Assembly (NCBI GenBank): GCA_964459725.1 | Contig: CAYWNT010000002.1 | Span: 19,719 to 83,718 of the forward strand | Length of the DNA: 64,000 nucleotides | Direction: 5' to 3' | Origin: an uncultured Gammaproteobacteria bacterium | Lineage (GTDB): Bacteria > Patescibacteriota > Patescibacteriia > Patescibacteriales > UBA12075 | In this document: one piece after another, positions 7,856 through 41,821 of the stretch | Layout: each line of letters begins with the position of its first letter | Numbering within the stretch: position 1 is the first letter of the stretch | Translations under genes and position numbers: made by a program | The notes under the pieces: generated by a model | Seen by the model: the letters and a program-made list of their open reading frames with translations, nothing else | Told to the model about the DNA's origin: nothing | Database searches by the model: none

Positions 7856-7882
7856 ATGACGCTAATTACTAAATGCTAATTA

Positions 7883-8938
7883 CTAACGCTTATCGCCTAT
7901 TCCTCCTTCAAATTCTTTATAAACCTTTGGATCAGTAATATTTATATCCGGATACACAAGAACCTCACCAACCCGACCGAGGCGTCCGACTATTGTTTTA
8001 TCAATTTGCTTTTCCTCACCAGATAACAGATCTCCTGCTCCATATTTATCTACTCCAACCACCTTGGCGTTATTTAGAAGAACTATCACCAAATCTATGT
8101 TCCAATAATTATAAGCGGAGTTATTCTTCAGGGAAAAATTTAAATTATTTATATTTCCTTTGCCAGCCTCGCTCCCGGAAGTTGATGGAACATATTCTAT
8201 ATCACTCACCACCATGTCTAAATGTTTGTCCCTGTACTCTTCCCATAAACCGAAATTATGAGGATCCACTCTTGTCCACTTCAAATTCTCGATTTGAATT
8301 TTAACATTTTTTGATAGAGGTAGTTTGTCATTATAAACCGAAAGTAAGTACTTCGACTCATTTGGTAAAATAAATCCTTCTTCTCTGCCGTACTCCTTCC
8401 CATTGATCAAAAAATAATATTCAAATTCAGCGTAGAAAGAGCTATTCACATTTTGGATGAGCGCATAAAAATCATTCTGATCTTCTCCTTGTTTAAGAAG
8501 TCCGGTTTTTAGAATTTTTATATCAACTGCTGACTCGTTGAGAAAATAATCATGAGAAGGTATATTCTTTTTCAGTGTTTGGTTCATCACTTCTCTGTCA
8601 TTTTTTAAACCAACAAAACTATACTCCCCAAACTCATACAAAAACATGCCCCAAAAAATAACAATAAAAATAATCAAAAATATATTTCGTGCAATTCGCA
8701 ATCTATTTTTATTTTTTATATACCAAGCACCAAAATCAAGCCTTTTAGAGGTCAGACCTGTCTGGTCCTGATATCTTTCCAGATTTACTTCTTGCTTACC
8801 TGTTTCTTTTTCTACTGCTTCTTCACCTGACTTATTCTCTTCATTCTTTTCTACAACTCCTTCCTGAACGCTCTTTTCATCTTGTTTTAGCTCATCTTCT
8901 GTAAAATATTTATTTTTATTCTTTATTAAATCTATCAT
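7883..8938 (-). CDS. hypothetical single-pass membrane protein with a large extracytoplasmic domain
   Basis: The track ORF starts at a TTG (8977). The first ATG (MIDLIKNK) is at 8938. TM helix IARNIFLIIFIVIFWGMFLYEF. No family recognised. Confidence 0.45.
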   Translation of the reverse strand: MIDLIKNKNKYFTEDELKQDEKSVQEGVVEKNEENKSGEEAVEKETGKQEVNLERYQDQTGLTSKRLDFGAWYIKNKNRLRIARNIFLIIFIVIFWGMFLYEFGEYSFVGLKNDREVMNQTLKKNIPSHDYFLNESAVDIKILKTGLLKQGEDQNDFYALIQNVNSSFYAEFEYYFLINGKEYGREEGFILPNESKYLLSVYNDKLPLSKNVKIQIENLKWTRVDPHNFGLWEEYRDKHLDMVVSDIEYVPSTSGSEAGKGNINNLNFSLKNNSAYNYWNIDLVIVLLNNAKVVGVDKYGAGDLLSGEEKQIDKTIVGRLGRVGEVLVYPDINITDPKVYKEFEGGIGDKR

Positions 8939-9011
8939 AAAATGCAAACAAACATTTATTATAAAACCAGTAGTCAAAAACTACTTTTCAATACTATTAT
9001 ACCATTTCGAG

Positions 9012-9049
9012 AGCAAAAATGAAAACCACAGGCTCTAAGCTGGTGGTTT
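9012..9049 (-). terminator. intrinsic terminator ending an unannotated minus-strand transcript
   Basis: Minus strand: AAACCACCAGCT-TAG-AGCCTGTGGTTT (12 positions, 1 mismatch, 1 G-U) followed by TTTTCATTTTTG. Confidence 0.6.
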
Positions 9050-9388
9050 CTAATTTGCCTGCTTCATACAGACTAAGTCTTTTACTTTTGTATATCTAGG
9101 TTTTTTTGTAATAACAACATACTCAAAGCACAAATGGGGGTTTGGGGGTGGATGCTGAGCGCCATTGCTAGGGAGGTTGAAATAATAATCAATGTGATAG
9201 CGAATCAGGAACCCCCAAGACTTTTGGTTACTTTTGGTCTCAAAATGACATAAGCGGTAGCGCGATAGGTTCAAGAGGTTAACATTAATTATTATTTTAA
9301 ACTAAATAGCAAGAAATGCGTCATTAAACAGTTTATCCTGTCGAATGATCAGGAAGCACACCAGCTCTAAGCTGATAAAATAATTCAA

Positions 9389-9799
9389 CTATTTATTTAA
9401 ATGCTTATCAATGGCTATGTTTACCAATTCATCAGCTTCATGATTCTGCTCCCTGAAAACATGACTAAAAGAAACTTTTTGAAATCCTAATGAAAGATTA
9501 TAAATCTGGACAAAAATTTGAGCCAAATCCTTATTCTTCACCTTGTATTCCTTGTTTAACTGCTTAACAACCAATTCGCTATCGCAAAAAAACTCTAGCT
9601 CTTCCGCTTCTAGCTCCTTGGCTTTTTTGATCGCTCCAAGAACCGCTAGGTACTCTGCCTGATTATTGGTGGCTATTCCGATATACTCGGAAATTTTTGC
9701 TACCACCTCCTTTTCAACATTTTTTAAAACCGCCCCTATACCAGCGTGACCTGGATTTCCTCTGGCGCCACCATCTGTATGAATTATTAATTTTTTCAT
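9389..9799 (-). CDS. rnhA: ribonuclease HI
   Basis: IHTDGGARGNPGHAGIGAVL, TNNQAEYLAVLGAI and HEADELV. The start overlaps the recJ stop (ATGA). Confidence 0.85.
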   Translation of the reverse strand: MKKLIIHTDGGARGNPGHAGIGAVLKNVEKEVVAKISEYIGIATNNQAEYLAVLGAIKKAKELEAEELEFFCDSELVVKQLNKEYKVKNKDLAQIFVQIYNLSLGFQKVSFSHVFREQNHEADELVNIAIDKHLNK

Positions 9800-11538
9800 A
9801 AAGTTGTTTTTTCAATATCAACAATCTTCATCTGAATGCTTCTTCTATTGTTGAATTCATTTATTTCCAAATAATAAACAATATCTATTTTATCTCCCTC
9901 GTTTATATCTTTCCATTTCTCAGCTTGCCCAAAACCTATAGCAAAAATCAAATTCTGACCTTCACGAGACAAGCCAAGCTTTAAATGCTGCCCCTCATCC
10001 CCCATGAGTGTCTTATTAACTACTGACACCCCGCGACTTACGAATCTCGGCCTGTTATTGCTCTGTCCGAAGGGTTCAAACTTTTCAATATCGCCAATCA
10101 AATCTTCATTAACTTCTGAGAATCTAAGCTCTGACTCTATTTCAATACCAGGCACCAAATCCACATCTTTCAATTTTTGATTTACATTTTGGATAACACC
10201 ATCTCTAAACTTTTCAATTTTTGATTCCGAAGTACTAAATCCGCAGGCCATTGGATGGCCTCCGTATTTATCCAAATGCTCGCCCACCTCGCTAATCGCC
10301 TCAGCCAAATTTAATTCCGGAATACTCCTTCCTGAGCCTTTGTAGCCATTTTCTATCTTGGTAATAACCAAAGAGGGTTTATAATACTTTTCTGTAATCC
10401 TTCCGGCAACAATTCCAATAACACCCTCATTCCAGGCCTGTTTTTTTTGTTTACCCTCTAGCTCAAATATCCCAATTAGTATTTTATCTTTTTTATTCTT
10501 GACCAAATCATCTACCTGAAAAAAAATATCATCTGTCATTTCCCTTCTTTCCTTATTTCTCTCATCAAGTTCCCCTGCCAATTTAGACGCCTTGTCCTCT
10601 TCGGTAGATGTTAGTAATTCATAAGCCATGCTGGCATGACCAATTCTGCCGGCAGCGTTAATTCGAGGTGCTATCTGAAATCCAATATTCCAGGCTTCTA
10701 TTTTTTTATCAGTCAGGCCTGAAACTTTGACTAGCGCATTAATACCCACATTCTTTGTGTTTTCTATTTCTTTGAGCCCTCTTTTTACCAAAAGCCTATT
10801 TTCTCCAAGCAAAGGAACACAATCAGCTATAGTGCCGATAGCAACCAAGGGCAGCATCCTATTCTCCAAAAGAAGCTTATCCTCATCACTTAATTTAGAT
10901 TTCTCCATGATAGCCAAGGCTAGCTTGAAAGCTACACCCACACCGGCTAAATATTTATAAGAATATTTCTCACTTTCCAAAACAGGATTGATTATAAGGC
11001 ATTCCGGCATCTCGCTCTCTTCTGCTGGATGATGATCAGTGACGATAACATCGATATTGTTATCAATTGCAAACTTTATTTCATCCTTGCTTTTGATTCC
11101 AGAGTCCACAGTAATGATCAGACTAACTTCACTCTCGACAAAATATTCAACAGCCTTTTTGTTTACTCCATAACCCTCAGTGGTTCGATCTGGAAGATAC
11201 ACATCAACATTGGCATTTACCGTTTTTAGGAAATTAACCAGAAGAGATGAGGCTGTTACTCCGTCAGCATCATAATCACCAAATATTATTATCTTGTTCT
11301 GTTTTTTTATGTGACCAACTATTAAGTCAACCGCCTTTTCCATATCCCGAAAAAGATAAGGATCATAAAGAGACTTATCATTTTTAGGATTCATAAATTC
11401 TTCAATTTCCGGTCCACTCCTGAGCCCTCTATTAAAAAGCATCTTGAGTATTACATCATTATATTCTGGGAAATCTTTTGGAAATTTATCATCCAAATCT
11501 TTTGATATTTTCCATTTTTTTTTCTTAAAATCGGTCAT
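9796..11538 (-). CDS. recJ: single-stranded-DNA-specific exonuclease RecJ
   Basis: DHH-family motifs GDYDADGVTASS, DSG and VTDHH, a DHHA1-like GGHPMACG, 580 aa. Confidence 0.9.
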   Translation of the reverse strand: MTDFKKKKWKISKDLDDKFPKDFPEYNDVILKMLFNRGLRSGPEIEEFMNPKNDKSLYDPYLFRDMEKAVDLIVGHIKKQNKIIIFGDYDADGVTASSLLVNFLKTVNANVDVYLPDRTTEGYGVNKKAVEYFVESEVSLIITVDSGIKSKDEIKFAIDNNIDVIVTDHHPAEESEMPECLIINPVLESEKYSYKYLAGVGVAFKLALAIMEKSKLSDEDKLLLENRMLPLVAIGTIADCVPLLGENRLLVKRGLKEIENTKNVGINALVKVSGLTDKKIEAWNIGFQIAPRINAAGRIGHASMAYELLTSTEEDKASKLAGELDERNKERREMTDDIFFQVDDLVKNKKDKILIGIFELEGKQKKQAWNEGVIGIVAGRITEKYYKPSLVITKIENGYKGSGRSIPELNLAEAISEVGEHLDKYGGHPMACGFSTSESKIEKFRDGVIQNVNQKLKDVDLVPGIEIESELRFSEVNEDLIGDIEKFEPFGQSNNRPRFVSRGVSVVNKTLMGDEGQHLKLGLSREGQNLIFAIGFGQAEKWKDINEGDKIDIVYYLEINEFNNRRSIQMKIVDIEKTTL

Positions 11539-28232: not shown

Positions 28233-29522
28233 CTAATTCAGATCAGTAGAACTAGATACCTTCTCTGTCGTTGTGCCTACCCCAATATCCTCCCCATTCA
28301 AAAAACCAATTGCAACCTCCATTTGTGGATCATTTCCACTATTATAGTCATCCAGGGTCAGATCAATAATATTATCAGGCTCAATTCCTTCGTCGTTTAT
28401 ACTCCTCCCCTTTGGTGTTAGCCATTTGGCTACGGTAATTTTTACCGAAGAGCCATCACTAAAATTACTTAAAGTCTGGACTGACCCTTTGCCAAAAGTC
28501 TTTTTACCAACTATTATTGCCTCATCATAATCCTGCAATGCCCCAGACACAATCTCAGCTGCTGAAGCGCTCCCCTCGTTTACCAAAACCACAGTTTTGT
28601 AACTTTTCAAACGAGCTCTTCCTCTGGCCAAATGCTCATTCTTATTATCCTCGCTATAATGCTCTGTAACCACTACTCCTGTCTCAACCCACTCACTAGC
28701 CATTTCAATAGCGGTGTCCAGGTATCCTCCTGGATTATTTCTTAGATCCACTATTATCCCTTTTGGATTCTTTTTTATAATATTTCTAACTGCTTTATTA
28801 AATAAATCAATCGTATCATTGTTAAAATTAGTTATTTTTACTACATAAATATCATCATCTCTGTGAGTTTCTCTTACGCTTTTTACTATTATCTTCCCTC
28901 TTTCAATTGTAAAGTCAGTTAGCCCGTCCTTGCCCTCTCTTGCAATAGACAGAACGACCTCAGTGCCCTTCGGACCTCTTATTTTATTTACAGCTTCATC
29001 TATACTTATTCCCATTGTGGATTCACCATTAATAAGAAAAACCTTATCTCCAGCCATAAGACCTGCTTTTTCTGCAGGCATTTCAGGAAGTGGTGCCACT
29101 ATAGTCAAAATATCGTCCTTGATTCCAATTTCAGCTCCAATGCCCTCAAAGGTGCCAGCCAAATCATCTGTAAAATCTTTTGAAATTTTAGGATCCATAA
29201 AAACAGTATAGGGATCCTCAAGAGAATCTACCATGCCCCGAATGGCTCCATAAAACATCTTTTTTTCATTTACTTTTTCCTGATCCACATAAAGACTACT
29301 GACAGACTCCCAAACATCCCAAAATAAACTAAAATCGATATCCTGAGTTAGCTGCCCTGGTTCAGGCTCGCTAAATTTTCCAAGAATCTTACCGGCATAG
29401 ACGGCCTGTTTCTTTGAAAGATCCATTATGACGTCATTTCGAGCAGCAAAATATGCTCCAAACTCAAAACTGACAAACATAAGGACAACTATAATTATAT
29501 ATTTTAAAATTTTTTTATACAT
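28233..29522 (-). CDS. S41-family C-terminal processing peptidase with PDZ
   Basis: FEGIGAEI, PDZ (AGLMAGDKVFLING), NEGSASAAEI, TFGKGSVQ, and an N-terminal TM anchor. Confidence 0.85.
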   Translation of the reverse strand: MYKKILKYIIIVVLMFVSFEFGAYFAARNDVIMDLSKKQAVYAGKILGKFSEPEPGQLTQDIDFSLFWDVWESVSSLYVDQEKVNEKKMFYGAIRGMVDSLEDPYTVFMDPKISKDFTDDLAGTFEGIGAEIGIKDDILTIVAPLPEMPAEKAGLMAGDKVFLINGESTMGISIDEAVNKIRGPKGTEVVLSIAREGKDGLTDFTIERGKIIVKSVRETHRDDDIYVVKITNFNNDTIDLFNKAVRNIIKKNPKGIIVDLRNNPGGYLDTAIEMASEWVETGVVVTEHYSEDNKNEHLARGRARLKSYKTVVLVNEGSASAAEIVSGALQDYDEAIIVGKKTFGKGSVQTLSNFSDGSSVKITVAKWLTPKGRSINDEGIEPDNIIDLTLDDYNSGNDPQMEVAIGFLNGEDIGVGTTTEKVSSSTDLN

Positions 29523-29775
29523 TTTTTATATAAACAAAATAAAATTTTTATTTTTTGTCAATTGTTCTTATTTTAGCATAACTTGCACTTTGTTAGCAAG
29601 TGAACAAAGTAGTAAAAACTACATACACCTTATTAATACATCAATTTTTTACTATTATTATTTTCTCAAATCACCTATTTAAAAACTCATCATCCTTCCT
29701 TTCCCAATTAAGAAACAATAGCATTGTTGTAGATTCTGACGACCGCACAAATCTACAACAATCAAATTTTTCAAT

Positions 29776-29816
29776 AAAAAAGAAAAAGCCGGAGTTCTTT
29801 ATTAGAACTCCGGCTA
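29776..29816 (-). terminator. intrinsic terminator of the large lipoprotein gene
   Basis: AGCCGGAGTTCT-N5-AGAACTCCGGCT, then TTTTTCTTTTTT on the minus strand. Confidence 0.75.
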
Positions 29817-29840
29817 AATTGTTTATTGTTTAAATACCAG

Positions 29841-32800
29841 TTATTTCCGGTATCGCCTCATTTGCACGTCAGTAGTTGAGTAACTACCAGCGTGTCCGCC
29901 GTAATTAATGGAAACTCTCCCGTTTGAAATGGAGAATTCTGGATCAAGAACGAACACGGCTTGTCCGTTCTCAAACGACGATGTGTCATCAGCAGAGGTG
30001 GAATAACCACTGCCGTCGTTATTGACATCAACACCAGACTCTTTGAGCTGAACAGTGATTGGATCACCGGTTGACGATGTGCCAGTGACAACGATCTCAT
30101 AGATATACTGGGTATCTATTTCGATTCCATCCCAACGTCTTGCCACATCCCAATGATTTCCATCCGCATAGATGATGGCACCTGTGCCAGTCATTACAGG
30201 CTGGGGATCAAGATCTGGGTTGATCCAGATCGTATCATCCGTCATGTTGAGCGGAGTCGAATCATGAAGGAGTGGTGTACTAAATGAAAAGATATCGCTG
30301 CCTCCCAAGGTGTGACCTGACACATCAGCAATACTTCCCAGGATCGTAACGGTGAAATTACTTCCAAACGCCAAAGGCACATAAGGAATAAATGTAATAG
30401 TATCGCCGCTAACTGAGTGAATCCCACTGACAGGAATATCACCCGGGCCAATGATCCGGAATGACAAATTACTTACAGTTGCCGGATCGACAAGCCCGTC
30501 AAAGACAACTACAATGTTGTCATTCGGCATGCCGGTGCCAACCGGCTCTCTCTCGGTAATGTTAAAAGTTGTATCGTCAATTATTGTACCTCCTGTTCTG
30601 AAATTGACAATAGCAGACAATGTATTTCCAGCGACATCGGCAATTCCCATAAACGTGGCAATATAGCTAGTAAATGAGTCTAGCGGAGCGTCAGGGGTAA
30701 GCGTAATGATGTTATCATCCACATCCAGATCAAAATCTACATCATTACCATGCTCATCTCTCAAACGAACCGAATTAACAGTTACGAATGAAGGATCAAG
30801 CTCATTTGATGTCTCCAACTCAATTCTGGTTGTTAATGAAACATTTTCTGCATTCCTCTCTGGTAACGTACTCATCACTACAAAAGAGTCAGGATCGACC
30901 ACGCTTGTTGTGACACAAATGCCTTCAATGTCATAAGTGTCGGCATGAGCACCAAGATTTACAGCCAATACTGCCTCAGAATCATACTCTGAGGGTTGAA
31001 GAGTTACAGTTGCTGTGCCATCAAGCCGAACTTCAGCCTTGGCAAATGAGGTGTAATCATTTCCATCGCCGTTTCGATCCTCACCGTCCTCCTTGATCTG
31101 TACTTCGACCATGGAATTCCTGAGCGAATCGCCATTAATTTCTACTGTGTAGACATGCGATGGATCAGCAACAATTGGTGCTTTGTAGGCTACATCCCAA
31201 GGATCGGTGCTTTGAAAAACTTCCACATCACCATTTTCGTGCTCAGCTCCTGCAATCGGATCATTCTCAATAAACAAAAACCATCCTTCACGATCGGTAC
31301 AATTGGAACCAAGAACAGTTGGAGTAGTTACTGTCCAGCTGTACATCTGGTCAAGTATGATTCCATCCTGACTCTCAACTGAACGATGGACAGTCACAGT
31401 ATACGACGTATCCAGGGTCAAAGATTGGTCTGGTGTGACTGTAACAGTCGCTCCACTAACCTGAATGGTTATATCGATATAATCCTCGATGTCATTATTC
31501 ATAATACTAATGGAACCTCCCAACACAGAACCAGGATCTACGACTTCATCAAAGCGAAGTCGAAATACACTATCAGTCTCAGCAAACTGCTCCGGAGAGT
31601 AGCTAGTCAGACTGAAAGTCTCAGGATCACCCGAACCGGGACCTCCGGTTGTAAATGTAGAAGTGTGATCGTTGGACATTACTCCTCCGCTCTCACCTAC
31701 TACACCAGATACGGTAACAGTATAAAGTGTTCCCGAACTCAACGGGCTCTCAGGCATAAAAAAAATATACCTACCCTGAAAGCTGGTAGTACCAACCACT
31801 TCTGAACCGGCCTCAGAAACAACCGTGATGCTATCGTTCTCTATCGAGGCAATATCATCGCTCATTGCCTTTTCTACAGAAGTGGCAATTGAAATATCTG
31901 TTGCTTCATCAGCAGGAAAAGAGCTGATCACTGTAAGGTAGTCAGGGTCAGTTCCAGGATCATCACCTACTCCACTTGGGAGATCAACATTGGTGAAGGT
32001 TCCGCCTTCAACGGCAAGGATTTCATCCTTGTCGTCCATAGTAGCTGAACGAATCTGGGCACCTTCCCTGATTACTGCCATCCTCTTCACCTCGGTAGAA
32101 CCGTTGGCTAAGAGACGAACAGTAAATGGGTCAAGGTTATCCCACAATAACCACGTCATCAAAAATTCTGAAGAATTATCAGAAAAAATCGCCGACATAG
32201 AAATAGTGGTTGCGCCTTCTTCCAAGTTATCTACAATCTTGGTCCAGGCCACTCCTGGATTCCAACCAACATTTTGGCTTCCGGCACCGGTTGCACTCTT
32301 GTATGATGTTTTTTGCTCGATAACATCATCTCTGTCACCACCAGGCACCAAGTAAGTCTTGATGTAGAGGTCTTCACCTTCAATCTTCAAAGTCGGCTGA
32401 AGCATGAAACCATCTTCACCCAGCTTCTCAATTCCGGTACCCCTGTAGATAAATCCAAGGCTTTTATCCCCCTTGGAATCTACAAAGACCCAATCACCAA
32501 CACTGTCTTGATCAAGGTAGACAGTTACTTCAGATCCGGTTTCAGGATTTATCCCTCTGAACTTGAGAGAAACATTCTCCCCCTCTTCGATCGCGGGAAC
32601 AGTTACCGTATGGGTGCTTGAGTCCTCACCTAATGTGAGTCTGACATCAGACACCACGCCGAGTGCATCTTTAACTTCATACTCAGGGAATCCCTGAAAT
32701 GAACTCTTAAGAACCTGTGAAAGATTCTTAAAAGTAAAGCGCACCTCTCCGGTATCCAGCTTCTCAGAGTTAACTGAAAAGGCTGAACTACCACTTCCAC

Positions 32801-32891
32801 CATCACTGCTTGGACTGCCTTTACCGCCTCCGCATGAGACGATCAAAAGCAAAGCTGCCAACAAAAATGTTAACCTCATAACCGCCTTCAT
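29841..32891 (-). CDS. large surface lipoprotein with about 4 SbsA/Big_5-like Ig domains and 2 CBM_4_9-like modules
   Basis: The start MKAVMRLTFLLAALLLIVSCGGG (lipobox) lies 5 nt after GAGGAGGAAG; the track start at 32927 is probably too long. Ig-like segments repeat the pattern ...P.D.A..V.....I...F...V.P.SV....I.......V.G....G.T.TF.P...L...T.YTVT.... Two W/D-rich beta-sandwich-like modules are present (..DPWDVAYKAP.., ..NHWDVARRWDG..). Confidence 0.7.
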   Translation of the reverse strand: MKAVMRLTFLLAALLLIVSCGGGKGSPSSDGGSGSSAFSVNSEKLDTGEVRFTFKNLSQVLKSSFQGFPEYEVKDALGVVSDVRLTLGEDSSTHTVTVPAIEEGENVSLKFRGINPETGSEVTVYLDQDSVGDWVFVDSKGDKSLGFIYRGTGIEKLGEDGFMLQPTLKIEGEDLYIKTYLVPGGDRDDVIEQKTSYKSATGAGSQNVGWNPGVAWTKIVDNLEEGATTISMSAIFSDNSSEFLMTWLLWDNLDPFTVRLLANGSTEVKRMAVIREGAQIRSATMDDKDEILAVEGGTFTNVDLPSGVGDDPGTDPDYLTVISSFPADEATDISIATSVEKAMSDDIASIENDSITVVSEAGSEVVGTTSFQGRYIFFMPESPLSSGTLYTVTVSGVVGESGGVMSNDHTSTFTTGGPGSGDPETFSLTSYSPEQFAETDSVFRLRFDEVVDPGSVLGGSISIMNNDIEDYIDITIQVSGATVTVTPDQSLTLDTSYTVTVHRSVESQDGIILDQMYSWTVTTPTVLGSNCTDREGWFLFIENDPIAGAEHENGDVEVFQSTDPWDVAYKAPIVADPSHVYTVEINGDSLRNSMVEVQIKEDGEDRNGDGNDYTSFAKAEVRLDGTATVTLQPSEYDSEAVLAVNLGAHADTYDIEGICVTTSVVDPDSFVVMSTLPERNAENVSLTTRIELETSNELDPSFVTVNSVRLRDEHGNDVDFDLDVDDNIITLTPDAPLDSFTSYIATFMGIADVAGNTLSAIVNFRTGGTIIDDTTFNITEREPVGTGMPNDNIVVVFDGLVDPATVSNLSFRIIGPGDIPVSGIHSVSGDTITFIPYVPLAFGSNFTVTILGSIADVSGHTLGGSDIFSFSTPLLHDSTPLNMTDDTIWINPDLDPQPVMTGTGAIIYADGNHWDVARRWDGIEIDTQYIYEIVVTGTSSTGDPITVQLKESGVDVNNDGSGYSTSADDTSSFENGQAVFVLDPEFSISNGRVSINYGGHAGSYSTTDVQMRRYRK

Positions 32892-33023
32892 GATCTTCCT
32901 CCTCTCGTTGTTTTTTATTATCCTCATGTAAACTATAACCTTGAAACTAATTACCTAAAACTAACTATATAACATTTTAATTGATTTTAATTGTTTATTC
33001 AATTGTCAAATAACCAATATGTA

Positions 33024-33052
33024 AACTTAGCATAATTCCCATTGGTTGTCAA
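33024..33052 (-). promoter_or_regulatory. candidate promoter of the large lipoprotein gene
   Basis: Minus strand: TTGACA, 17-nt spacer, TAAGTT, about 130 nt upstream of the start. Confidence 0.35.
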
Positions 33053-33140
33053 GAGGAAAAAGCAAAAATTGATAATTGTTTAATAATTAAAAATAATCCC
33101 ATAAATTATTGTATAAAAACCAATAAAACACTAATTTTAA

Positions 33141-33180
33141 AAAGAAAAAGGGGCTGAATATTAGTAAAATATTCAACCCC
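33141..33180 (-). terminator. intrinsic terminator of the SLT gene
   Basis: GGGGTTGAATATT-N5-AATATTCAGCCCC, then TTTTTCTTTTT on the minus strand. Confidence 0.75.
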
Positions 33181-33186
33181 TTGATT

Positions 33187-34632
33187 TTAGGCCTTTCTCA
33201 TTACCCTCAAAAACCTTTTTACATGTTTTGTGGTCCTAGGGTAGATGTGGTATGTTTTGCCGGCTAGCAGGGCCTTTTTTATATCCTCCGGTCCTGCATA
33301 ATAAGCAGCAACAGCGTATTCGATGATATTGTTGAACTCATCAAGCTGCTCTGCAAAATACTCGCCAGTGCCTAATAGGTTCTGCCTTGGATCAAAAGGA
33401 TCGGTTACACCGAGATATTTCTGGGTACCGGGCATTAACTGCCCCAAACCCTCAGCTCCGTCCTCAGACACTGCATTTGGATCACCGGTTGACTCAATAA
33501 AAACCTTTACTGACATCAGAAACTGCGGCACCCCGTGTATTTTATAAACATCGTCAATATGCTTTTTGTATTTACGATAAATACGAAGGATACGAGTATC
33601 TGTAACTCTTTTACCATCATGCCTTATGAGATGCCCTTCGGGATCAATCGTAAAAGCATAATTTAGATTTTTTTCTCTAGTCCTTTGTTTAACAACCCAA
33701 TCCCTAGGTTTCCTTTTGGTAGTTTTTTTCAAGAAAGCCAACTCCTCTTGAGCCGATGACAAATCTGAACTTAACGAACCGAAACTCTTTTTCATACTTG
33801 CTACTTCTTTGAGAAGCACAGTTTGCTCTCTTGTGAGTCTCATAATCTTTTCTTCGCTTACTTTCAGTTTCAATTTCGCTTCAGCCAGCTCCTTCATTGC
33901 TCCTACGTAGCTCTTTCCTAGTTTATTTTTTTCTTTCTCCAGGGCTACATATTTTTCTATCTGTCTTTGTCGGTCAAGCCTGGCAGATTCTGCTAATTTT
34001 TTCTTGGTTACCTCTCTCTCTTTATAGCTCGAATTAAATTCCCTTCTTGCCTTTTTGAGTCTCCTGTCAGCCTCCTCTTTCTCACTCGTCAAAGAAGATA
34101 AACTGGCGCTCAAGTTGTTTTTCTCTCGCACAACACGCTCGAGTCTCGCTTCTAAGCCTATCACTCTGCTCTGATAATTTTTTAGATCATTTTCCTTGAG
34201 AGAAGACAAGTTGACGCTCAAAGCATCTCTCTCTTGCCTCACAAGTTCCAGTATTGACTCCAGACTCTTAACTCTCCTTTTGTGAGACTTTAATTCATTT
34301 TCCTGAAGTGAAGACAAGCTGGCGCTCAAGTTATTCTTCTCCAATGTCACTTGCTCAAGCATTGACTCCAGGTACCTGACTCGCCTTTTGTGTTTTTTTA
34401 GTTCGTTCTCCTTTAGCGAGGACAAACTGGCGCTCAAAACATCTTTCTCTAGCGTCACTTGCTCGAGTCTTGACTCCAGGTCTCCAACCTTGCTTTTGTA
34501 TAATTTTAACTCATTTTCTTTCTCAGTCGTCCCGTAGTAATAACCGCCTGGACCGACCAACCTAATCTTTTTGCACTCTCCTGTTCCAGGAAAAAGCAAA
34601 AGAAACATCAAAAAAAACATTACCCCACGCAT
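33187..34632 (-). CDS. secreted coiled-coil protein with a C-terminal lytic transglycosylase (SLT, GH23-like) domain
   Basis: Signal peptide, 4 x 36-aa heptad-rich repeats, more coiled coil, then IESTGDPNAVS...GLGQLMPGT...AAYYAGP (the E-S / GLMQ / AYNAG pattern). AGAGGAGGAAG lies 2 nt upstream (GGAGGA core 4 nt upstream). Confidence 0.75.
   Translation of the reverse strand: MRGVMFFLMFLLLFPGTGECKKIRLVGPGGYYYGTTEKENELKLYKSKVGDLESRLEQVTLEKDVLSASLSSLKENELKKHKRRVRYLESMLEQVTLEKNNLSASLSSLQENELKSHKRRVKSLESILELVRQERDALSVNLSSLKENDLKNYQSRVIGLEARLERVVREKNNLSASLSSLTSEKEEADRRLKKARREFNSSYKEREVTKKKLAESARLDRQRQIEKYVALEKEKNKLGKSYVGAMKELAEAKLKLKVSEEKIMRLTREQTVLLKEVASMKKSFGSLSSDLSSAQEELAFLKKTTKRKPRDWVVKQRTREKNLNYAFTIDPEGHLIRHDGKRVTDTRILRIYRKYKKHIDDVYKIHGVPQFLMSVKVFIESTGDPNAVSEDGAEGLGQLMPGTQKYLGVTDPFDPRQNLLGTGEYFAEQLDEFNNIIEYAVAAYYAGPEDIKKALLAGKTYHIYPRTTKHVKRFLRVMRKA
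34087..34518 (-). repeat. four tandem 108-bp (36-aa) in-frame repeats in the SLT gene
   Basis: ENELK.[YH]K.[RK]V..LES.LE.V..EK..LSASLSSL[KQT] x4 (residues about 39-182). Confidence 0.8.
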
Positions 34633-34810
34633 AGCTTCCTCCTCTTATTTTAAAGATCTAAATATTAGATAAATAACTCTAATATTTTATTAAATATAAA
34701 CTCTTACTTATATTTAATGATATTATAAAAAAATTAATAAACTATTAAAGCTTCTTTACAACAAATCAACTTAACATAAACACACGAAACTTGTCAACTT
34801 TTTTTGCAAA

Positions 34811-34848
34811 TAAAAAAGGCGGGTTTATTATTTTCAATAAACCCGCCT
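34811..34848 (-). terminator. intrinsic terminator of ORF 34870..35913
   Basis: GGCGGGTTTATT-N6-AATAAACCCGCC, then TTTTTTATTT on the minus strand. Confidence 0.75.
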
Positions 34849-34869
34849 ATAGCAGCTAAATATTTCTTG

Positions 34870-35913
34870 TTATTTCTTTAGACCCGCTTTTTTCATGGCT
34901 TTAGCAATAAAGCCACCTTTCTCTTCCTTGTTTTTTCCTTCCAATACATCCATCTCTTCTGGAAGAATTTCAACAGTTTGACTTGTAAATACACTTGGCT
35001 CATCACTCTCTGACTCATCTTCACCTTCAAGACTATCGATATCAAGACCTGTTAGATCCCCAAAGCCTTCACCGATATCAGCCAGAGTCTCATCGATTTC
35101 TCCTTCATCGAAAGCCCCATCTTCTAAATCACCAGGCTCTTCTTCGACAACCGTCTCTCCTGGAGGAATAAGTTCATCTGCATCCAACACTTGAGTTTCC
35201 AACCCAGATTCTGCTTTTTCCTGCTCTGGAGAAGAATCAGTTGGAGCACCTTCTTCGCCCATTTTTTTTTCTATATCCTTTACTAATTCCGGCCTCTCAT
35301 CCGACTCTGGCTTCTCGGGTATTTCATCTCCTGTATAAGTCAGCTTTATCATCTCTGCTTCTTCCAGGTTGGCCAATGCGCAAGCACTAATATCATAATA
35401 AGATATTTTCCCTTTGCACTTACAATTTTCCAACGCAGAGAAATATTTTGCCTTTATTTCTCCAGTTTCAAAATTTGCCCCTCTGTCTACCCAAAGTTTT
35501 TCACACTCACCTTCAAATTTATGACAATTACCGTGTACTAGTAGTTGTCTACATTTTACAAAGATAATTTCATCCTGAGCAGAATGACATGAGTCAAGAA
35601 ACACCTTGGCGCCAGGAGCGTGTACTTTTCCGGAAAATTCTCCCTTGATATGTACATGTTTAATTTCTTTAGGCAAACTAACTTCGGCTGCTGGTATGCC
35701 AATATCGGATCCAAGCTTTACCGTATTGGCTTCTTTGTTTAATTGCTCAACTTCTTTTTGCATGGTCGCCATTTTTTCTTTTAATTCATTATTCTCAGCT
35801 AGCTTTCTATTAGCATCAGTAGTCGCATCTCTAGCTCTTCTTTCTGCATCATCTTTTTCCGTGTTTCGCTTCAATCCAAGCTCGTTATTTATTCTTAATA
35901 CTTCTTGATGCAT
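34870..35913 (-). CDS. hypothetical protein: N-terminal coiled coil, Cys/His-containing beta-helix-like core, long acidic tail
   Basis: 347 aa. The core IKGEFSGKVHAPGAKVFLDSCHSAQDEIIFVKCRQLLVHGNCHKFEGECEKLWVDRGANFETGEIKAKYF has a bactofilin-like periodicity (weak, by eye). The last ~150 aa are D/E-rich. Confidence 0.5.
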   Translation of the reverse strand: MHQEVLRINNELGLKRNTEKDDAERRARDATTDANRKLAENNELKEKMATMQKEVEQLNKEANTVKLGSDIGIPAAEVSLPKEIKHVHIKGEFSGKVHAPGAKVFLDSCHSAQDEIIFVKCRQLLVHGNCHKFEGECEKLWVDRGANFETGEIKAKYFSALENCKCKGKISYYDISACALANLEEAEMIKLTYTGDEIPEKPESDERPELVKDIEKKMGEEGAPTDSSPEQEKAESGLETQVLDADELIPPGETVVEEEPGDLEDGAFDEGEIDETLADIGEGFGDLTGLDIDSLEGEDESESDEPSVFTSQTVEILPEEMDVLEGKNKEEKGGFIAKAMKKAGLKK

Positions 35914-36091
35914 GTCCTTCTCTTAATTGTCTTAGTCCATTACTGACCAATATTTTCAACAAACAATACACCAAAAGAATAATCAACAATGTCACCAATG
36001 CCACGACTGTCCAATCAATCCATGTCATATTTACAACATGAAAGAAAAACAAATCCCATGTCTCCGCCCTAAATAGTATATTCTCAAACAT
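35885..36091 (-). CDS. small single-pass membrane protein
   Basis: 68 aa. TM helix WTVVALVTLLIILLVYCLLKILV. GGGAGGAG lies 5 nt upstream. The 3' end overlaps the next ORF by 29 nt. Confidence 0.4.
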   Translation of the reverse strand: MFENILFRAETWDLFFFHVVNMTWIDWTVVALVTLLIILLVYCLLKILVSNGLRQLREGHASRSIKNK

Positions 36092-36211
36092 CTTGTCTCC
36101 TCCCTGTATTCTAAAATGAAATGAACGATAATTAAATTTGGTATAAAATTAAAACATATTGCTTAATAAGTCAATAGCAATATGTCAAATCACACTCTTT
36201 TTATCAAAATC

Positions 36212-36727
36212 TTAAATTATTGATTTTAGTTGTTTTAGAATTTCAGGCAGAAGAGGAAATATTATATTTACAAACTTGAGAAAAAACGCTGCTAACTTGG
36301 AGTTAACCAGAGCGTCTCCCAAGAAGTGATTGATGAATGAATACCTGGCAATTAGAAATAAAAAGAGGCCAATAACCAGTGATCCTTCCAAAAAGCCAAG
36401 TATTGCTCCACCAAGACGGTTAAAAGTCTTTAAAAATGGAATTATCGATAGCAAATTAAATGTTTTATCAATAAGAGAAAAAGCAAGACCAACAACCTTC
36501 TGGGTAAAAGAAAAAACAATTAAGAAGCTTAAAATTCGGCCGAAATTATCCAAGCCTAAAAAAGCACCCTGAATAAGCTCGAAAAGGCTCAAATAATAAT
36601 GACTAGCAACCCAAGCTCCAATAATAGCTCCGATCAACGCTCCCAGAGTTCTAATTAGACCAAAAAACAAGCCATAAAAAACAAAGCCTGATAATATCAC
36701 TATTAATATTGTATCGAAGATAGACAT
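36212..36727 (-). CDS. cvpA: CvpA-family (colicin V production) membrane protein
   Basis: MSIFDTILIVILSGFVFYGLFFGLIRTLGALIGAIIGAWVA..., 171 aa, 4 TM helices. Confidence 0.7.
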   Translation of the reverse strand: MSIFDTILIVILSGFVFYGLFFGLIRTLGALIGAIIGAWVASHYYLSLFELIQGAFLGLDNFGRILSFLIVFSFTQKVVGLAFSLIDKTFNLLSIIPFLKTFNRLGGAILGFLEGSLVIGLFLFLIARYSFINHFLGDALVNSKLAAFFLKFVNIIFPLLPEILKQLKSII

Positions 36728-36770: not shown

Positions 36771-36825
36771 CCATATTTTTATCTCTAATAAAATATTATA
36801 TTAAAATTATAACATTAACATAACA

Positions 36826-36852
36826 AAAAAGCGAGCATTTGCTCGCTTTTTT
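36826..36852. terminator. bidirectional terminator downstream of the triple-repeat gene
   Basis: AAAAAAGCGAGC-ATTT-GCTCGCTTTTTT. Confidence 0.7.
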
Positions 36853-36883
36853 GTTATAAAACTTTCGACTCGCGCGAAGCTTG

Positions 36884-38611
36884 CTAGCGCGTCGCTCCAC
36901 TATAAGTTATCGCCTGCATGGCGTTCCAGTCTTCTGTTGTGCTTGGTGTTTTTCCGAATATTCCCTTGAAGATATTTATTCCGTTTTTCTCACTGTTTAA
37001 ATTTCTGTTTTCAGCTCTCTGTCTAAGTCCATAGGCCATAACCTTGATAGCTGCAGCGTCATTGGGATTATCCATGTTTGGATATCTCTTATAGATCGAT
37101 TTGAATTTAGTAATTGCTTTATTTTCTGCCGTCACGTTTGTCATTGTCGGCCATCTGCCATTAGCAATCTTTACAGCATCGGTCAGGTCATCTTCGGTTT
37201 CAGGCAACTTACCGAAAGCAGCTTTGAAAGAGTGCATCACGGCCGCCCTCTCGCCTGCTCCAAGGCGCTTAGTGTTCTCATCAACTCCATAAGTAATAAA
37301 ACTATTGATAGAGTTCTGCATCTCAGCTGTCACGTTCGACATGTCAGTCATTAATGACTTTAGATATGTAATTTGGTTTTGCTGTTCTCTTACTAAATTT
37401 CTGAGCTCCTTTAGCTCTGCTAAAATATCATCTAATTTATTACCACTAAGCAACTCAGCCTTTTCTTCTATTTTTATAATAGCATCGTCTTTTGCGCATT
37501 CCCCATAATGCTTCTTGGCTACTCCGGTAGCGTCTAGCATACATTTATTGCCATATGTTTTTCCATCAACTCCACAAACCGGATCGTACTGCATGGTACA
37601 AGCAACACCAGCCGACTCCATTGCTACGTTTATTTCATTGCTGTACACTCCACATTTTCCTCCGAGATACTCGCAAACTCGAACATAATAAACTCCAATC
37701 CCTGAAAAAGCATCTAAAACATCAGATGATTTATTAGGGTCACTGAGATAATGATACTTATCTCCGCTCCTAGTTGGATAAGTTGGGCCTGGGTTCTTGG
37801 ACCATACCACCTTAAATCCTTTCTCTGAATATCCGTCAACAGACCATTTAATATCTCTTCCTTCACCGCTCAAGGTAATTGATTTTACCTCACCAGAAGA
37901 AGTATCACTTGATCCATCACCAAGTGTTACTGTAATTTCATTACTATACTTACCACATGCCCCTCCAAGGTACTCACAAACACGAACATAATATGTTCCA
38001 GAACCAGAAAAATCACTTAACGTGTCAGATGTCCTGTTCGGATCACTGTAGTAGTGATACTTATCCCCGCTTCTAGTTGGATACGTTGGTCCTTGATTCT
38101 TGGACCATACAACCTTGAACCCTTTTTTCGAATAACCATCTGTGGACCATTTAATATTTTTTCCTTCTCCACTTAGGGTAATTGACTCTACCTCTCCGGA
38201 AGAATTATCAGCTGATCCGTCACCAAGTGTAACAGTAATCTCATTACTGTACTTTGCGCACTGTCCTCCTCCAAGATACTCACAAACTCGAACATAATAA
38301 GTTCCAGAACCAGAAAAATCACTTAACGTGTCAGATGTCCTGTTCGGATCACTGTAGTAGTGATACTTATCCCCGCTTCTAGTTGGATACGTTGGTCCTT
38401 GATTCTTGGACCATACAACCTTGAACCCTTTATAAGAATACCCATCAACACTCCAAGAAATAGAACTTCCGCTCCCAGAAAGAGAAATAGAATTTACAAC
38501 TCCCTGATTACTACTTGTGTTATTAGAATAAACCGCTCCGACTATGTCCACACTGAACATAAACGAAAAAATTATAAGCGCTGATAAAACAACGCGAGAT
38601 GTTTTCCTCAT
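36884..38611 (-). CDS. secreted protein: three ~100-aa tandem domains, a Kazal-like domain and a helical C-terminal domain
   Basis: Start at [17 protein letters not shown] (38611; the track ORF extends to 38680). The repeats contain [29 protein letters not shown]...[12 protein letters not shown]. The Kazal-like segment is [35 protein letters not shown]. Confidence 0.7.
37607..38497 (-). repeat. three ~300-bp tandem coding repeats; copies 1 and 2 are near-identical at the DNA level
   Basis: A stretch of >120 nt (ccagaaccagaaaaatcacttaacgtgtcagatgtcctgttcggatcactgtagtagtgatacttatccccgcttctagttggatacgttggtccttgattcttggaccatacaaccttgaaccc) occurs at about 38000 and about 38300. Confidence 0.85.
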
Positions 38612-38767
38612 AAATCTTCTTAAATTTAGTTTATAAAGTTTATATATTATTTTATTAACAATGATAATATTATAACACATTTAACCATATTTATACTATA
38701 GTATAAATATTAGAAATTCGTTAAGAAATAATTATTACCATCTAATATAAATTATAAAAACAAAATA

Positions 38768-38797
38768 GCCCCTTCTACTTTCTAAAGTAAAAGGGGC
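38768..38797 (-). terminator. terminator downstream of ORF 38822..39484
   Basis: GCCCCTT...AAGGGGC stem, then TATTTTGTTTTT on the minus strand. Confidence 0.55.
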
Positions 38798-38821
38798 CAT
38801 GGTTTTTAATTTTATAAAAAC

Positions 38822-39484
38822 CTAAATTATAAAAGGAGCTAGAGCAAAGGCCCAGCGAAAATTAGAGTCCCAGACACTGCTATTATTTTCACAGGAACGC
38901 ACATTTAGCCAAAGACCTCTTCCGAGGCGCTCAACACTAAAAAGACATAATTTACCCTCAGAGTCTTTAATTGGCTTCATTGCCATCAAAAGTGTTTCAC
39001 CTATTGGCTGATCCACGTATTGCAACCGCCACTGCGGTCCTGCTTCTGCTAGAAAAAGTTCGCCGCCAATCTTGTAAATACCTTCATAAATCTCATCCAA
39101 AGTCCCTGATCTTCCGATTATTTCCTTCGTTGTCGCAACACCAATATCAATCCTGATATCAATCTGAGAAATTCCCGGAAGAAACTCCGGCTTCTCTATA
39201 ATATCCTTGGCTGATTCTGACATCTTGAATATTGGATTGCTTAAGGCCTCTAAAAACTCAGCACTATTTTGCAATCCTGTTCCAAGTTCGACAGCCTTCC
39301 CGATTGAAAATTTGCTTTTACTATCACAAACCTCACACTCATCCCAAATATCACAAAGGATTTGAAAATCGAATTCTGTATGTAGATTAATACCTCCCCT
39401 CTGATCAAGTTGAAGCTTGATCCTGCGCATTATTCGATCCAATTTTTGATATTGATCATCGCTTACAGTTATGTTGGTCGCCAT
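38822..39484 (-). CDS. hypothetical cytoplasmic protein
   Basis: 220-aa ORF. GAAGGAGGA lies 5 nt upstream. No family recognised. Confidence 0.5.
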   Translation of the reverse strand: MATNITVSDDQYQKLDRIMRRIKLQLDQRGGINLHTEFDFQILCDIWDECEVCDSKSKFSIGKAVELGTGLQNSAEFLEALSNPIFKMSESAKDIIEKPEFLPGISQIDIRIDIGVATTKEIIGRSGTLDEIYEGIYKIGGELFLAEAGPQWRLQYVDQPIGETLLMAMKPIKDSEGKLCLFSVERLGRGLWLNVRSCENNSSVWDSNFRWAFALAPFII

Positions 39485-39684: not shown

Positions 39685-39848
39685 GGAGGGGTAGCCGAGT
39701 CGGTTTCAGGCGCTTGATTGTAAATCAAGTAAAAGCGAAAATTCACCAAACAATGTTTTAAGGGTTTTTTGTCTAGTGCGCATAAACATAAAACTATTAG
39801 AATATTGTGAATTCTCGTACGTAGGTTCAATTCCTACCCCCTCAGCCA
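39685..39848 (+). tRNA. tRNA-Tyr(GTA) with a greatly expanded (~91-nt) variable region
   Basis: Acceptor GGAGGGG/CCCCTCA (G1-A72 mismatch as drawn). D-arm GCC-GAGTCGGTTTCA-GGC. Anticodon arm CTTGA-TTGTAAA-TCAAG. T-arm GTAGG-TTCAATT-CCTAC. CCA is encoded. 164 nt total versus about 85 nt expected. Confidence 0.7.
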
Positions 39849-41410: not shown

Positions 41411-41821
41411 TTATTTTTCTGTATTTCGCACTTTTCTATCATTTGTAAAAATTACTCTTTTAATATATAAGTTAGGACTTCTAAAATTGACAAATATACC
41501 TAATTCAAAGTTGCTAACTCTTAAATAACTATAAACTTGGTCTATAAAATTTTTTGGAATGGCGTCAACTGCTTTCACCTCTAATATTACTTTATCATCA
41601 ATTATAAAATCAGGTTTATAATATCCAATTCTTTTTCCTGAAACAGGAGAAATAATATCAATATTTTTTTCTCTTTTATATTTTATACCATCCCTGCTAA
41701 ATATTTCTTCAACCAAATTACAATAAACCAACTCTTTATGTCCTGGTCCTAAAATCTTCCTCACTTCGATAAGTGCACCTTGAACTTTATAACTCAATTC
41801 CTTATACAATACAAAAGTCAT
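41411..41821 (-). CDS. GxxExxY-family protein (PD-(D/E)xK nuclease fold)
   Basis: GHKELVY matches GxxExxY. KPDFIIDDKVILEVK gives the PD...ExK motif. 136 aa. Confidence 0.7.
   Translation of the reverse strand: MTFVLYKELSYKVQGALIEVRKILGPGHKELVYCNLVEEIFSRDGIKYKREKNIDIISPVSGKRIGYYKPDFIIDDKVILEVKAVDAIPKNFIDQVYSYLRVSNFELGIFVNFRSPNLYIKRVIFTNDRKVRNTEK

Follow-up and report, generated by a model that had tools for sequence, protein, structure and literature searches.

The 64,000-nucleotide (nt) window analyzed here, the whole stretch taken from contig CAYWNT010000002.1 of a patescibacterial assembly, carries on its minus strand (positions 36884 to 38611) a gene for a 575-amino-acid protein. This protein combines, in this order, a predicted signal peptide, three modules of about 100 residues, one Kazal domain, a heptad coiled coil, and a 145-residue helical C-terminal domain (CTD). 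We infer that it is tethered to the cell surface and acts there as a canonical inhibitor of subtilisin- or chymotrypsin-like proteases, a reading that we narrowly favor and in which activity, target, and anchoring are all predicted. All parts of the gene described below lie on the minus strand.

The preliminary description of this DNA had recognized, in the segment behind the modules ([35 protein letters not shown]), the core of a Kazal-type serine protease inhibitor domain with four rather than six cysteines, and both observations held. The segment scores 42.1 bits with Pfam Kazal_1 (PF00050; cutoff, 21) and 26.1 bits with Kazal_2 (PF07648; cutoff, 22.8), above the curated gathering cutoff in each case; Kazal inhibitors make up MEROPS family I1. 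A phmmer search of the PDB matched more than 60 solved Kazal inhibitors, including ovomucoid (E value, 8.8e-15), GmSPI-2 (1.8e-9), and CrSPI-1, with agrin and follistatin among the weaker matches. On the basis of these matches and of the loop conservation described below, we delimit a nonclassical, two-disulfide Kazal domain at residues 336 to 373 (37493 to 37606). Its four cysteines, C338, C346, C357, and C372, are spaced C-x7-C-x10-C-x14-C and align with Cys2, Cys3, Cys4, and Cys6 of the ovomucoid third domain. Cys1 and Cys5 are lacking, the position of Cys5 being occupied by Asp360. The domain is therefore not of the classical type, in which six cysteines form 1-5, 2-4, and 3-6 disulfides; all four cysteines are instead in register, without gaps, with the spacing of the GmSPI-2 type. 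The predicted disulfides are C338-C357 and C346-C372 (the Cys2-Cys4 and Cys3-Cys6 bridges). AlphaFold2 (AF2) models residues 336 to 372 as strand/strand/helix/strand with a predicted local distance difference test score (pLDDT) of about 88; as secondary structure only, strands were assigned to residues 345 to 347 and 366 to 369 and a helix to residues 356 to 362.

The four-cysteine pattern is not novel but corresponds to the known, functional two-disulfide variant of GmSPI-2, silk proteinase inhibitor 2 of Galleria mellonella (PDB 2m5x and 4hgu). With its four cysteines and two disulfides, GmSPI-2 potently inhibits both subtilisin and proteinase K (PMC4169406). It is the best single-domain match, consisting of a single Kazal domain with identical cysteine spacing and aligning without gaps over 37 residues, 21 of them (57%) identical. 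However, GmSPI-2 is a free 36-residue insect peptide with Thr at P1, whereas here the domain is a cassette within a 575-residue bacterial protein and has Met at P1. The ovomucoid third domain (turkey OMTKY3 and silver-pheasant OMSVP3) has an almost identical reactive loop, C-T-L-E-Y-R-P-L-C in OMTKY3 compared with C-T-M-Q-Y-D-P-V-C here and C-T-M-E-Y-A-P-V-C in the family consensus, and shares the KTYGNKC segment with its spacer Asn; it differs by its six cysteines, its Cys1-Cys5 bridge, and an N-terminal segment that is lacking here. Among microbes, EPI1a of Phytophthora infestans is a two-disulfide Kazal domain that stably inhibits subtilisin-family proteases (PMC1236909; PMC9904509). EPI1a lacks Cys3 and Cys6, whereas the domain described here lacks Cys1 and Cys5. 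EPI1 and EPI10 resemble the present protein as microbial secreted Kazal inhibitors, and they act at an interface between organisms, but they are small soluble effectors of a eukaryote (an oomycete) and have no FN3-like modules, coiled coil, or CTD.

A canonical reactive-site loop is present, running from C338 through T, M340, Q, Y, D, P, and V to C346 and accompanied by Asn355. We take P1 to be the second residue after Cys2, as established for ovomucoid; on this basis and by the ovomucoid alignment, M340 is P1, Q341 is P1', Y342 is P2', and N355 is the loop-bracing (spacer) Asn. Loop conservation was counted over 118 Kazal domains of the family. The P3 Cys is present in 110 of the 110 domains that align across the loop start, and the other columns hold Thr at P2 (104 of 118), Glu at P1' (93), Tyr at P2' (114), Pro (118), and the spacer Asn (108), so that the reactive loop and the spacer Asn are the most conserved Kazal columns across the family. 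Four cysteines are found in 111 of the 118 domains. P1 is Met in 73 domains, Leu in 11, and Lys in 7, and Arg, Thr, and Glu also occur there among relatives. In two-headed relatives, one P1 is usually hydrophobic (Met or Leu) and the other basic (Lys or Arg), a pairing that would follow, by analogy, the logic of multiheaded inhibitors. Because the loop and the Asn are conserved and P1 is paired in this way, we argue for a real inhibitory function, and the Kazal domain is probably a working inhibitor. A Met at P1 would predict subtilisin-, chymotrypsin-, or elastase-like targets and argues against trypsin-like ones, and we lean, with modest confidence, toward a subtilisin- or chymotrypsin-like target class. 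A separate subtype with six cysteines was observed in seven homologs (P0033, P0062, P0084, P0090, P0098, P0102, and P0106), whose two additional cysteines fall within an insertion between Cys3 and Cys4 (CG..L.VQC.TTPCDP..KTYSNKC) instead of at the classical Cys1 and Cys5 positions; the disulfide layout of this subtype may be undescribed.

The same matches and loop columns bear on another explanation, in which the Kazal head is a gripping device. A tight inhibitor-protease complex would attach the episymbiont to a serine protease on the host surface, or the head would be a noninhibitory binding module such as those of agrin and follistatin, both of which do appear among the weaker PDB matches. 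The head is carried by a multidomain, probably oligomeric surface protein, P1 differs among relatives as might be expected with differing partners, and the family belongs to the Patescibacteria, whose cultivated members are obligate episymbionts (PMC12206443). However, the best matches are true inhibitors rather than matrix Kazal-like domains, and a strongly conserved loop with Met at P1 in about two-thirds of the domains fits a common target better than host-specific receptors; moreover, no host is known for this lineage. We consider gripping improbable and retain protease inhibition as the preferred role of the head.

The modules in front of the Kazal domain had been described as belonging to no recognized family. 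This stands as far as Pfam is concerned, where the modules remain below the threshold of fn3 (PF00041; 15.6 bits against a cutoff of 25; E value, 0.019) and an isolated module finds zero matches at E values up to 10. The predicted structure is nevertheless that of a fibronectin type III (FN3)-like beta-sandwich. With an 81-sequence alignment, AF2 returned confident beta-sandwiches with pLDDT up to 97, and the top Foldseek matches in the PDB were contactin FN1-FN3, LAR, fibronectin 10-12, and gp130 (E values, 1e-10 to 1e-8). The Foldseek alignments to tandem FN3 arrays extend over about 320 columns and span three modules. As modeled, the module is a seven-stranded beta-sandwich that superposes on FN3 domains, that is, an FN3-like fold of a family outside Pfam coverage. 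Its hallmarks are a strongly conserved loop, PTYPxRxGDKYHY, and a pair of cysteines across the last hairpin. Module 1, with the hairpin pair Cys110-Cys118, comprises residues 39 to 130 (38222 to 38497; module hidden Markov model [HMM] independent E value, 5e-44) and is modeled with seven or eight strands at pLDDT 76 to 89. Module 2 comprises residues 141 to 231 (37919 to 38191; 3.5e-47) and module 3 residues 242 to 331 (37619 to 37888; 1.9e-46), both FN3-like and both with pLDDT of 93 to 97.

Next, we examined the relationships among the modules. Tandem Repeats Finder reported a 303-nt period with 2.6 copies at 37658 to 38450, and a second repeat search found three 300-nt copies at 37622 to 38530. 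Modules 1 and 2 are 87% identical in amino acids and 84% in nucleotides, compared with 66% and 69% for modules 1 and 3 and 69% and 71% for modules 2 and 3. The earlier characterization of the modules as nearly identical thus applies to the core of modules 1 and 2 only, module 3 being 66 to 69% identical to them. A stretch of more than 120 identical nucleotides had been noted between copies 1 and 2, and it measures 131 nt as the longest common substring, at 38301 to 38431 in module 1 and 37995 to 38125 in module 2. With 84% background identity, a run of this length would arise by chance with a probability of about 1e-10. Within the tract, modules 1 and 2 show no synonymous difference in 43 codons, whereas a comparison of modules 1 and 3 along this stretch gives 16 synonymous differences among 35 codons that encode identical amino acids. 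In the flanks (60 to 66 nt on each side), modules 1 and 2 are just 55% and 82% identical, with 7 synonymous differences each in 20 to 22 codons. Duplication and gene conversion had both been proposed, and gene conversion is the better of the two because synonymous differences are absent inside the tract while its flanks have diverged. Judged from these codon comparisons, the tract represents a gene-conversion patch and cannot be accounted for by constraint at the protein level. We also considered concerted evolution as a general rule in the family and rejected it: among 234 modules of 121 family proteins, 210 have their nearest relative in another protein. The conversion between modules 1 and 2 reads as a local event, an exception in the family, and a few relatives (for example, P0009) have almost identical module copies.

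Repeats of 300 nt can be misjoined in short-read metagenome assemblies, and a 131-nt tract is near the typical read length, so we also weighed whether repeat collapse or expansion during assembly could have produced the three modules or the identical tract, a concern already raised in the preliminary description. The same protein is, however, encoded on two contigs, of 301,085 bp (JGI) and 318,313 bp (NCBI/ENA), and the reading frame is intact through all three modules, which differ at 13 to 34% of their residues and hence can be assembled individually. Three-module relatives were moreover found in other samples, such as the independent P0002 and P0004 (64 to 65% identity). With the three-module gene found again in independent assemblies and relatives, an assembly artefact appears extremely improbable.

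To place the protein in a family, the full-length sequence was searched against 8000 scored candidates, resulting in at least 892 homologs at E values up to 1e-3. Where a source is named, it is Candidatus Falkowbacteria, Parcubacteria, or "Patescibacteria group," and GC content, like the relatives, is consistent with a Falkowbacteria-like organism. Most homologs have precomputed Pfam Kazal matches, and some already carry the automatic NCBI name "Kazal-type serine protease inhibitor family protein." The statement that Kazal domains are uncommon in bacteria therefore does not apply to this lineage. With domain HMMs built from the query, 16 architectures were distinguished among 121 proteins, which contain one to four modules (MOD) and zero to three Kazal domains (KAZ) in variable positions and almost always end in the coiled coil (CC) and CTD. 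Here and on the contigs of two relatives, the gene lies between an upstream methionyl-tRNA synthetase (MetRS) gene and a downstream CvpA gene; among 41 loci from species-representative genomes, MetRS is a neighbor in 9 and CvpA in 8. A conserved operon partner was sought at these loci, and the result was the MetRS/CvpA synteny in a subset, with nothing functionally suggestive. The syntenic locus is occupied by MOD-KAZ, MOD-KAZ-MOD, MOD-KAZ-MOD-KAZ, MOD-KAZ-MOD-MOD, MOD-MOD-KAZ, MOD-MOD-MOD, and, here, MOD-MOD-MOD-KAZ. This variety at one locus indicates that modules and Kazal domains behave as recombining cassettes on a fixed base.

The Kazal domain is missing in about a quarter of the 121 homologs, and this optional character, together with the constancy of the modules and of the CC-CTD, would suit a structural surface fiber or surface-layer component made of FN3-like modules, in which the Kazal cassette only guards the fiber from clipping. 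A function of the modules' own is also suggested by their conserved PTYPxRxGDKYHY loop and disulfide hairpin, and the gene is a stand-alone unit between two terminators. Nevertheless, Kazal versions free of modules exist (KAZ-CC-CTD and KAZ-KAZ-CC-CTD), and the complementary P1 residues of two-headed versions suggest that selection acts on the range of inhibition and not on self-protection alone. A fiber merely guarded by its inhibitor is thus a decidedly improbable account, and we continue to regard inhibition as the role of the Kazal-bearing members.

The part behind the Kazal domain, already described as a helical region of about 200 residues, is also helical in the AF2 model and can be divided in two. 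The coiled-coil stalk occupies residues 374 to 430 (37322 to 37492), with the heptad series I/L/L/L/V/Q/I/L/M in [29 protein letters not shown]. AF2 places a long helix at residues 393 to 424 with low pLDDT as a monomer (59 to 68) and hydrophobic residues at 3-4 heptad spacing; such low confidence combined with this spacing is expected of a coiled coil that needs partners. L397, E409, Q410, and L417 are invariant in the family alignment. The CTD (residues 431 to 575; 36887 to 37321) ends in AITYSGATR and is all-alpha, with three helical-hairpin repeats of about 44 residues, as delimited from AF2, hhalign, and conservation. It is modeled confidently (pLDDT, 86 to 97; predicted template modeling score of the tail model, 0.76), and hhalign of the CTD against itself matches the repeats of about 44 residues (E value, about 2e-5). 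Its isoelectric point (pI) is 9.5, compared with an acidic 4.7 to 5.7 for the rest of the protein. The invariant columns of the family lie mostly within residues 397 to 575, with conservation extending to the last residue, and many invariant CTD residues are polar (E, R, D, K, and N, S, W, Y).

We then searched for the CTD beyond this family, counting as superfamily members those with a C-terminal, three-repeat helical domain of about 145 residues ending in Y-S-G-A-x-R and preceded by a heptad helix. An exhaustive profile search of cluster representatives found the CTD in 1392, of which 926 matched at E values up to 1e-30; the window protein is a row of the alignment that defines the profile, which makes its own match circular, and the 1392 representatives are the independent support. 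In nearly all of the 150 matches listed, the CTD lies at or within about 50 residues of the C terminus, in proteins of 230 to 3605 residues. Inspection of 35 CTD proteins revealed as passengers CarboxypepD_reg, Big_5 and other Ig-like domains, CARDB, LTD, TSP3, and glycosidases; two of the 35 are fervidolysin-type S8 subtilases, and nearly all begin with a signal-peptide-like sequence. Of 81 open reading frames (ORFs) with a CTD, 77 also have the coiled coil, including ORFs of unrelated passenger proteins. The species-representative genomes with a CTD are Falkow-, Komeili-, Uhr-, Yanofsky-, and other Parcubacteria-type metagenome-assembled genomes, several of them with at least two loci. A CTD-only query of a word-indexed database retrieved mainly short fragments. 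From these alignments, the coiled coil and CTD are the part that is constant and most conserved, both in the family and in a much larger superfamily. A TSP3-type calcium-binding tail explains why some CTDs stop about 45 residues short of the C terminus, as seen in locus L027, where the CTD-bearing gene (7722 to 10781, plus strand) is broken by a single in-frame TAA, either as a pseudogene or through a sequencing error.

Comparison with known domains gave zero matches to the CTD in Pfam (at E values up to 10) and NCBIfam and, for the CTD profile, in PDB sequences at E values up to 10; Foldseek against viral structures gave a best E value of 0.38. DUF4214 (PF13946), considered for a resemblance of motifs, was rejected, with no Pfam match at E values up to 10, and phage DUF4214 proteins matched by structure at chance level (E values, 2.2 and 4.2). 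The same FN3-like array occurs in other bacteria with an N-terminal S-layer homology (SLH) domain in place of the CC-CTD, or with a FecR domain behind a hydrophobic N-terminal segment that reads as a membrane anchor. In SLH surface proteins, three SLH motifs bind a secondary cell wall polymer. The CTD resembles them in design only, as a lineage-typical, three-repeat helical module on varied extracellular passengers, and differs in its position: the SLH domain is N-terminal in the FN3-like array relatives, and the CTD is always C-terminal behind the coiled coil. By its architecture, the CC-CTD resembles a noncovalent surface-anchoring or surface-assembly module, and we give the proposal that it is an anchor even chances.

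Instead of anchoring, the CC-CTD could be an oligomerization, ligand-binding, or enzyme unit common to many secreted proteins, in which case the inhibitor would be soluble. Neither a transmembrane segment nor an LPXTG motif is present in the CTD, which also lacks similarity to known wall-binding domains and whose many invariant polar residues could form a binding or catalytic site. Against this, the CTD is placed strictly at the C terminus of about 1,400 passenger architectures and has several paralogs per genome, as anchoring or sorting modules do; the three pseudorepeats and basic pI suit binding to an anionic envelope polymer; and the FN3-like array relatives use SLH anchors in its place. 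We therefore regard a soluble inhibitor as unlikely and keep to a tethered one.

Taken together, the tethered inhibitor may work as follows. The protein, made by a Falkowbacteria-like patescibacterium, would be exported by the Sec pathway and, after cleavage of its signal peptide, reach the cell surface, where the CTD would hold it noncovalently on the cell envelope. The coiled coil would oligomerize it into a dimeric or trimeric stalk, with the Kazal head just above the stalk and the three FN3-like domains reaching further out as spacers. The Met340-Gln341 loop would dock in the active site of a protease like a substrate (the "standard mechanism") and block it. The tiny cell would in this way be coated with a layer of tethered inhibitor that shields its own surface proteins, either from the CTD-bearing subtilases of the lineage itself or from proteases of hosts or community neighbors. 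Recombination would duplicate, convert, delete, and reorder the FN3-like and Kazal cassettes, the 131-nt patch being a fresh trace of this process.

Several points weigh against this model. No ORF with S8 or S1 motifs occurs in the window, and no protease gene of these classes was found beside 79 related loci, so that these searches yielded no cognate protease; a "GDSGG" match in L027 was considered as an S1 protease and rejected as a Gly/Ser-rich stretch. The sole protease in the window is an S41 Ctp-like enzyme (28233 to 29522), a class that to our knowledge is not a known Kazal target. P1' is Gln here and usually Glu in the family. Since the Kazal domain is absent from about one homolog in four, inhibition cannot be the constant function of the family. 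The model also assumes that disulfides form in the envelope of what is probably an anaerobe. Anchoring is argued from architecture: the best Foldseek match of the CTD in the PDB has an E value of 0.95, and the CTD was rejected as an SLH domain (PF00395), with no Pfam match, an hhalign probability of 0.1% against the SLH regions of P0085, P0103, and P0117, and no SLH structures among the Foldseek matches. For every family member, inhibition, target, and localization are predictions, and a literature search returned no paper on Kazal domains in Patescibacteria or in the candidate phyla radiation (CPR).

A more far-reaching proposal joins these elements. The CC-CTD would be an undescribed surface-display system across Parcubacteria-type Patescibacteria, a functional counterpart of SLH and LPXTG anchoring with interchangeable heads that include S8 subtilases and Kazal domains. 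At the interface between episymbiont and host, the Kazal heads would neutralize host or self proteases or, in the boldest version, lock onto host-surface serine proteases as adhesins. We consider this combination quite unlikely as a whole.

The limits of the gene were set from the ORF list and from the N termini of homologs. The ORF containing the gene extends over 36884 to 38680, and the ATG at 38611 (MRKTSR...) is the likely start, where the N termini of aligned homologs coincide (consensus, xxKK...); an upstream in-frame ATG at 38680 would add 23 residues that have no counterpart in these homologs. Public gene calls disagree on the length, with 598 residues in P0389 and 558 in P0001. Residues 1 to 26 ([26 protein letters not shown], followed by VYS; 38534 to 38611) read as a predicted Sec signal peptide, with basic R2, K3, and R6, a hydrophobic core, and V-G-A ahead of Val27 at the putative cleavage site; reading the N terminus by eye revealed no lipobox Cys. 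A terminator-like hairpin (36819 to 36858; 18-bp stem and T-rich tail) lies 26 nt past the stop codon, and another, belonging to the upstream gene, lies at 38765 to 38800 (16-bp stem and T run). Between the upstream hairpin and the start codon are two promoter-like sites, TTAACG-18-TATAGT at 38724 to 38695 and TGT-TATAAT at 38677 to 38669. Bracketed by terminator-like hairpins on its own strand, the Kazal gene looks like a monocistronic transcription unit of its own.

Downstream of the Kazal gene lies a run of envelope-related genes on the minus strand (28233 to 36727). These encode CvpA (36212 to 36727), a very acidic 347-residue protein with no Pfam matches (34870 to 35913), an SLT transglycosylase with a coiled coil (33187 to 34632), a 1028-residue protein with four Big_5 Ig-like domains and a local GC content of 0.45 compared with about 0.36 (29841 to 32927), and the S41 Ctp-like peptidase, which has a PDZ domain. 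Upstream, between MetRS and the Kazal gene, a 220-residue ORF (38822 to 39484, minus strand) has no Pfam match and no homolog in the 79 related loci; the syntenic loci of relatives lack it and have MetRS directly adjacent, and it may be a lineage-specific insertion. Between this ORF and MetRS, on the strand opposite to nearly all genes, the Rfam tRNA model matches end to end over 161 nt (39685 to 39845, plus strand; 41.3 bits against a gathering score of 29). This tRNA-like element has a GUA (Tyr) anticodon loop and an insertion of about 88 nt at the position of the variable arm, and it is not called by ARAGORN. A small PD-(D/E)XK nuclease gene (PDDEXK_3; 41411 to 41821, minus strand) lies between MetRS and an RsmI-like methylase gene; one relative has an NYN-domain gene at this position and another has nothing, as if the slot varied within a block whose synteny is otherwise kept. 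Over the entire window (1 to 64000), the minus strand carries about 40 of the 51 ORFs of at least 150 residues, and several of those on the plus strand overlap minus-strand genes. Every 2-kb bin has a negative GC skew, such that the cumulative skew falls monotonically, consistent with one replichore whose genes are co-oriented with replication.

Kazal domains in bacteria, the annotation of some of the homologs, and two-disulfide types in insects and oomycetes are already known. In the literature and databases searched, we found no description of the FN3-like module family, of the architecture in which cassettes vary on a conserved base, or, above all, of the coiled-coil and CTD superfamily. 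Pacifastin-like inhibitor domains were reported in 2026 in CPR bacteria and Myxobacteria (PMC13388995). These are likewise small, disulfide-rich, "animal-type" serine protease inhibitors in genuine bacterial contexts, with function predicted in both cases; however, they form another inhibitor family, and that article does not treat the proteins described here. Their presence in the CPR suggests a wider theme.

The finding is of value for its architecture and its CTD and not because a bacterium has a Kazal domain. The Kazal head, a small domain, lends itself to expression, and the solved inhibitor closest to it is potent against subtilisin and of practical interest. A large part of bacterial diversity belongs to the Patescibacteria, whose cultivated representatives live attached to other microbes, while the construction and defense of their surfaces are poorly known. 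In these organisms, a textbook "animal" inhibitor domain appears to be a routine, cassette-like part of the surface proteome, with specificity residues that vary as expected for real inhibitors, and the way in which many of their surface proteins are mounted is probably set by the CTD, which occurs in about 1,400 clusters.

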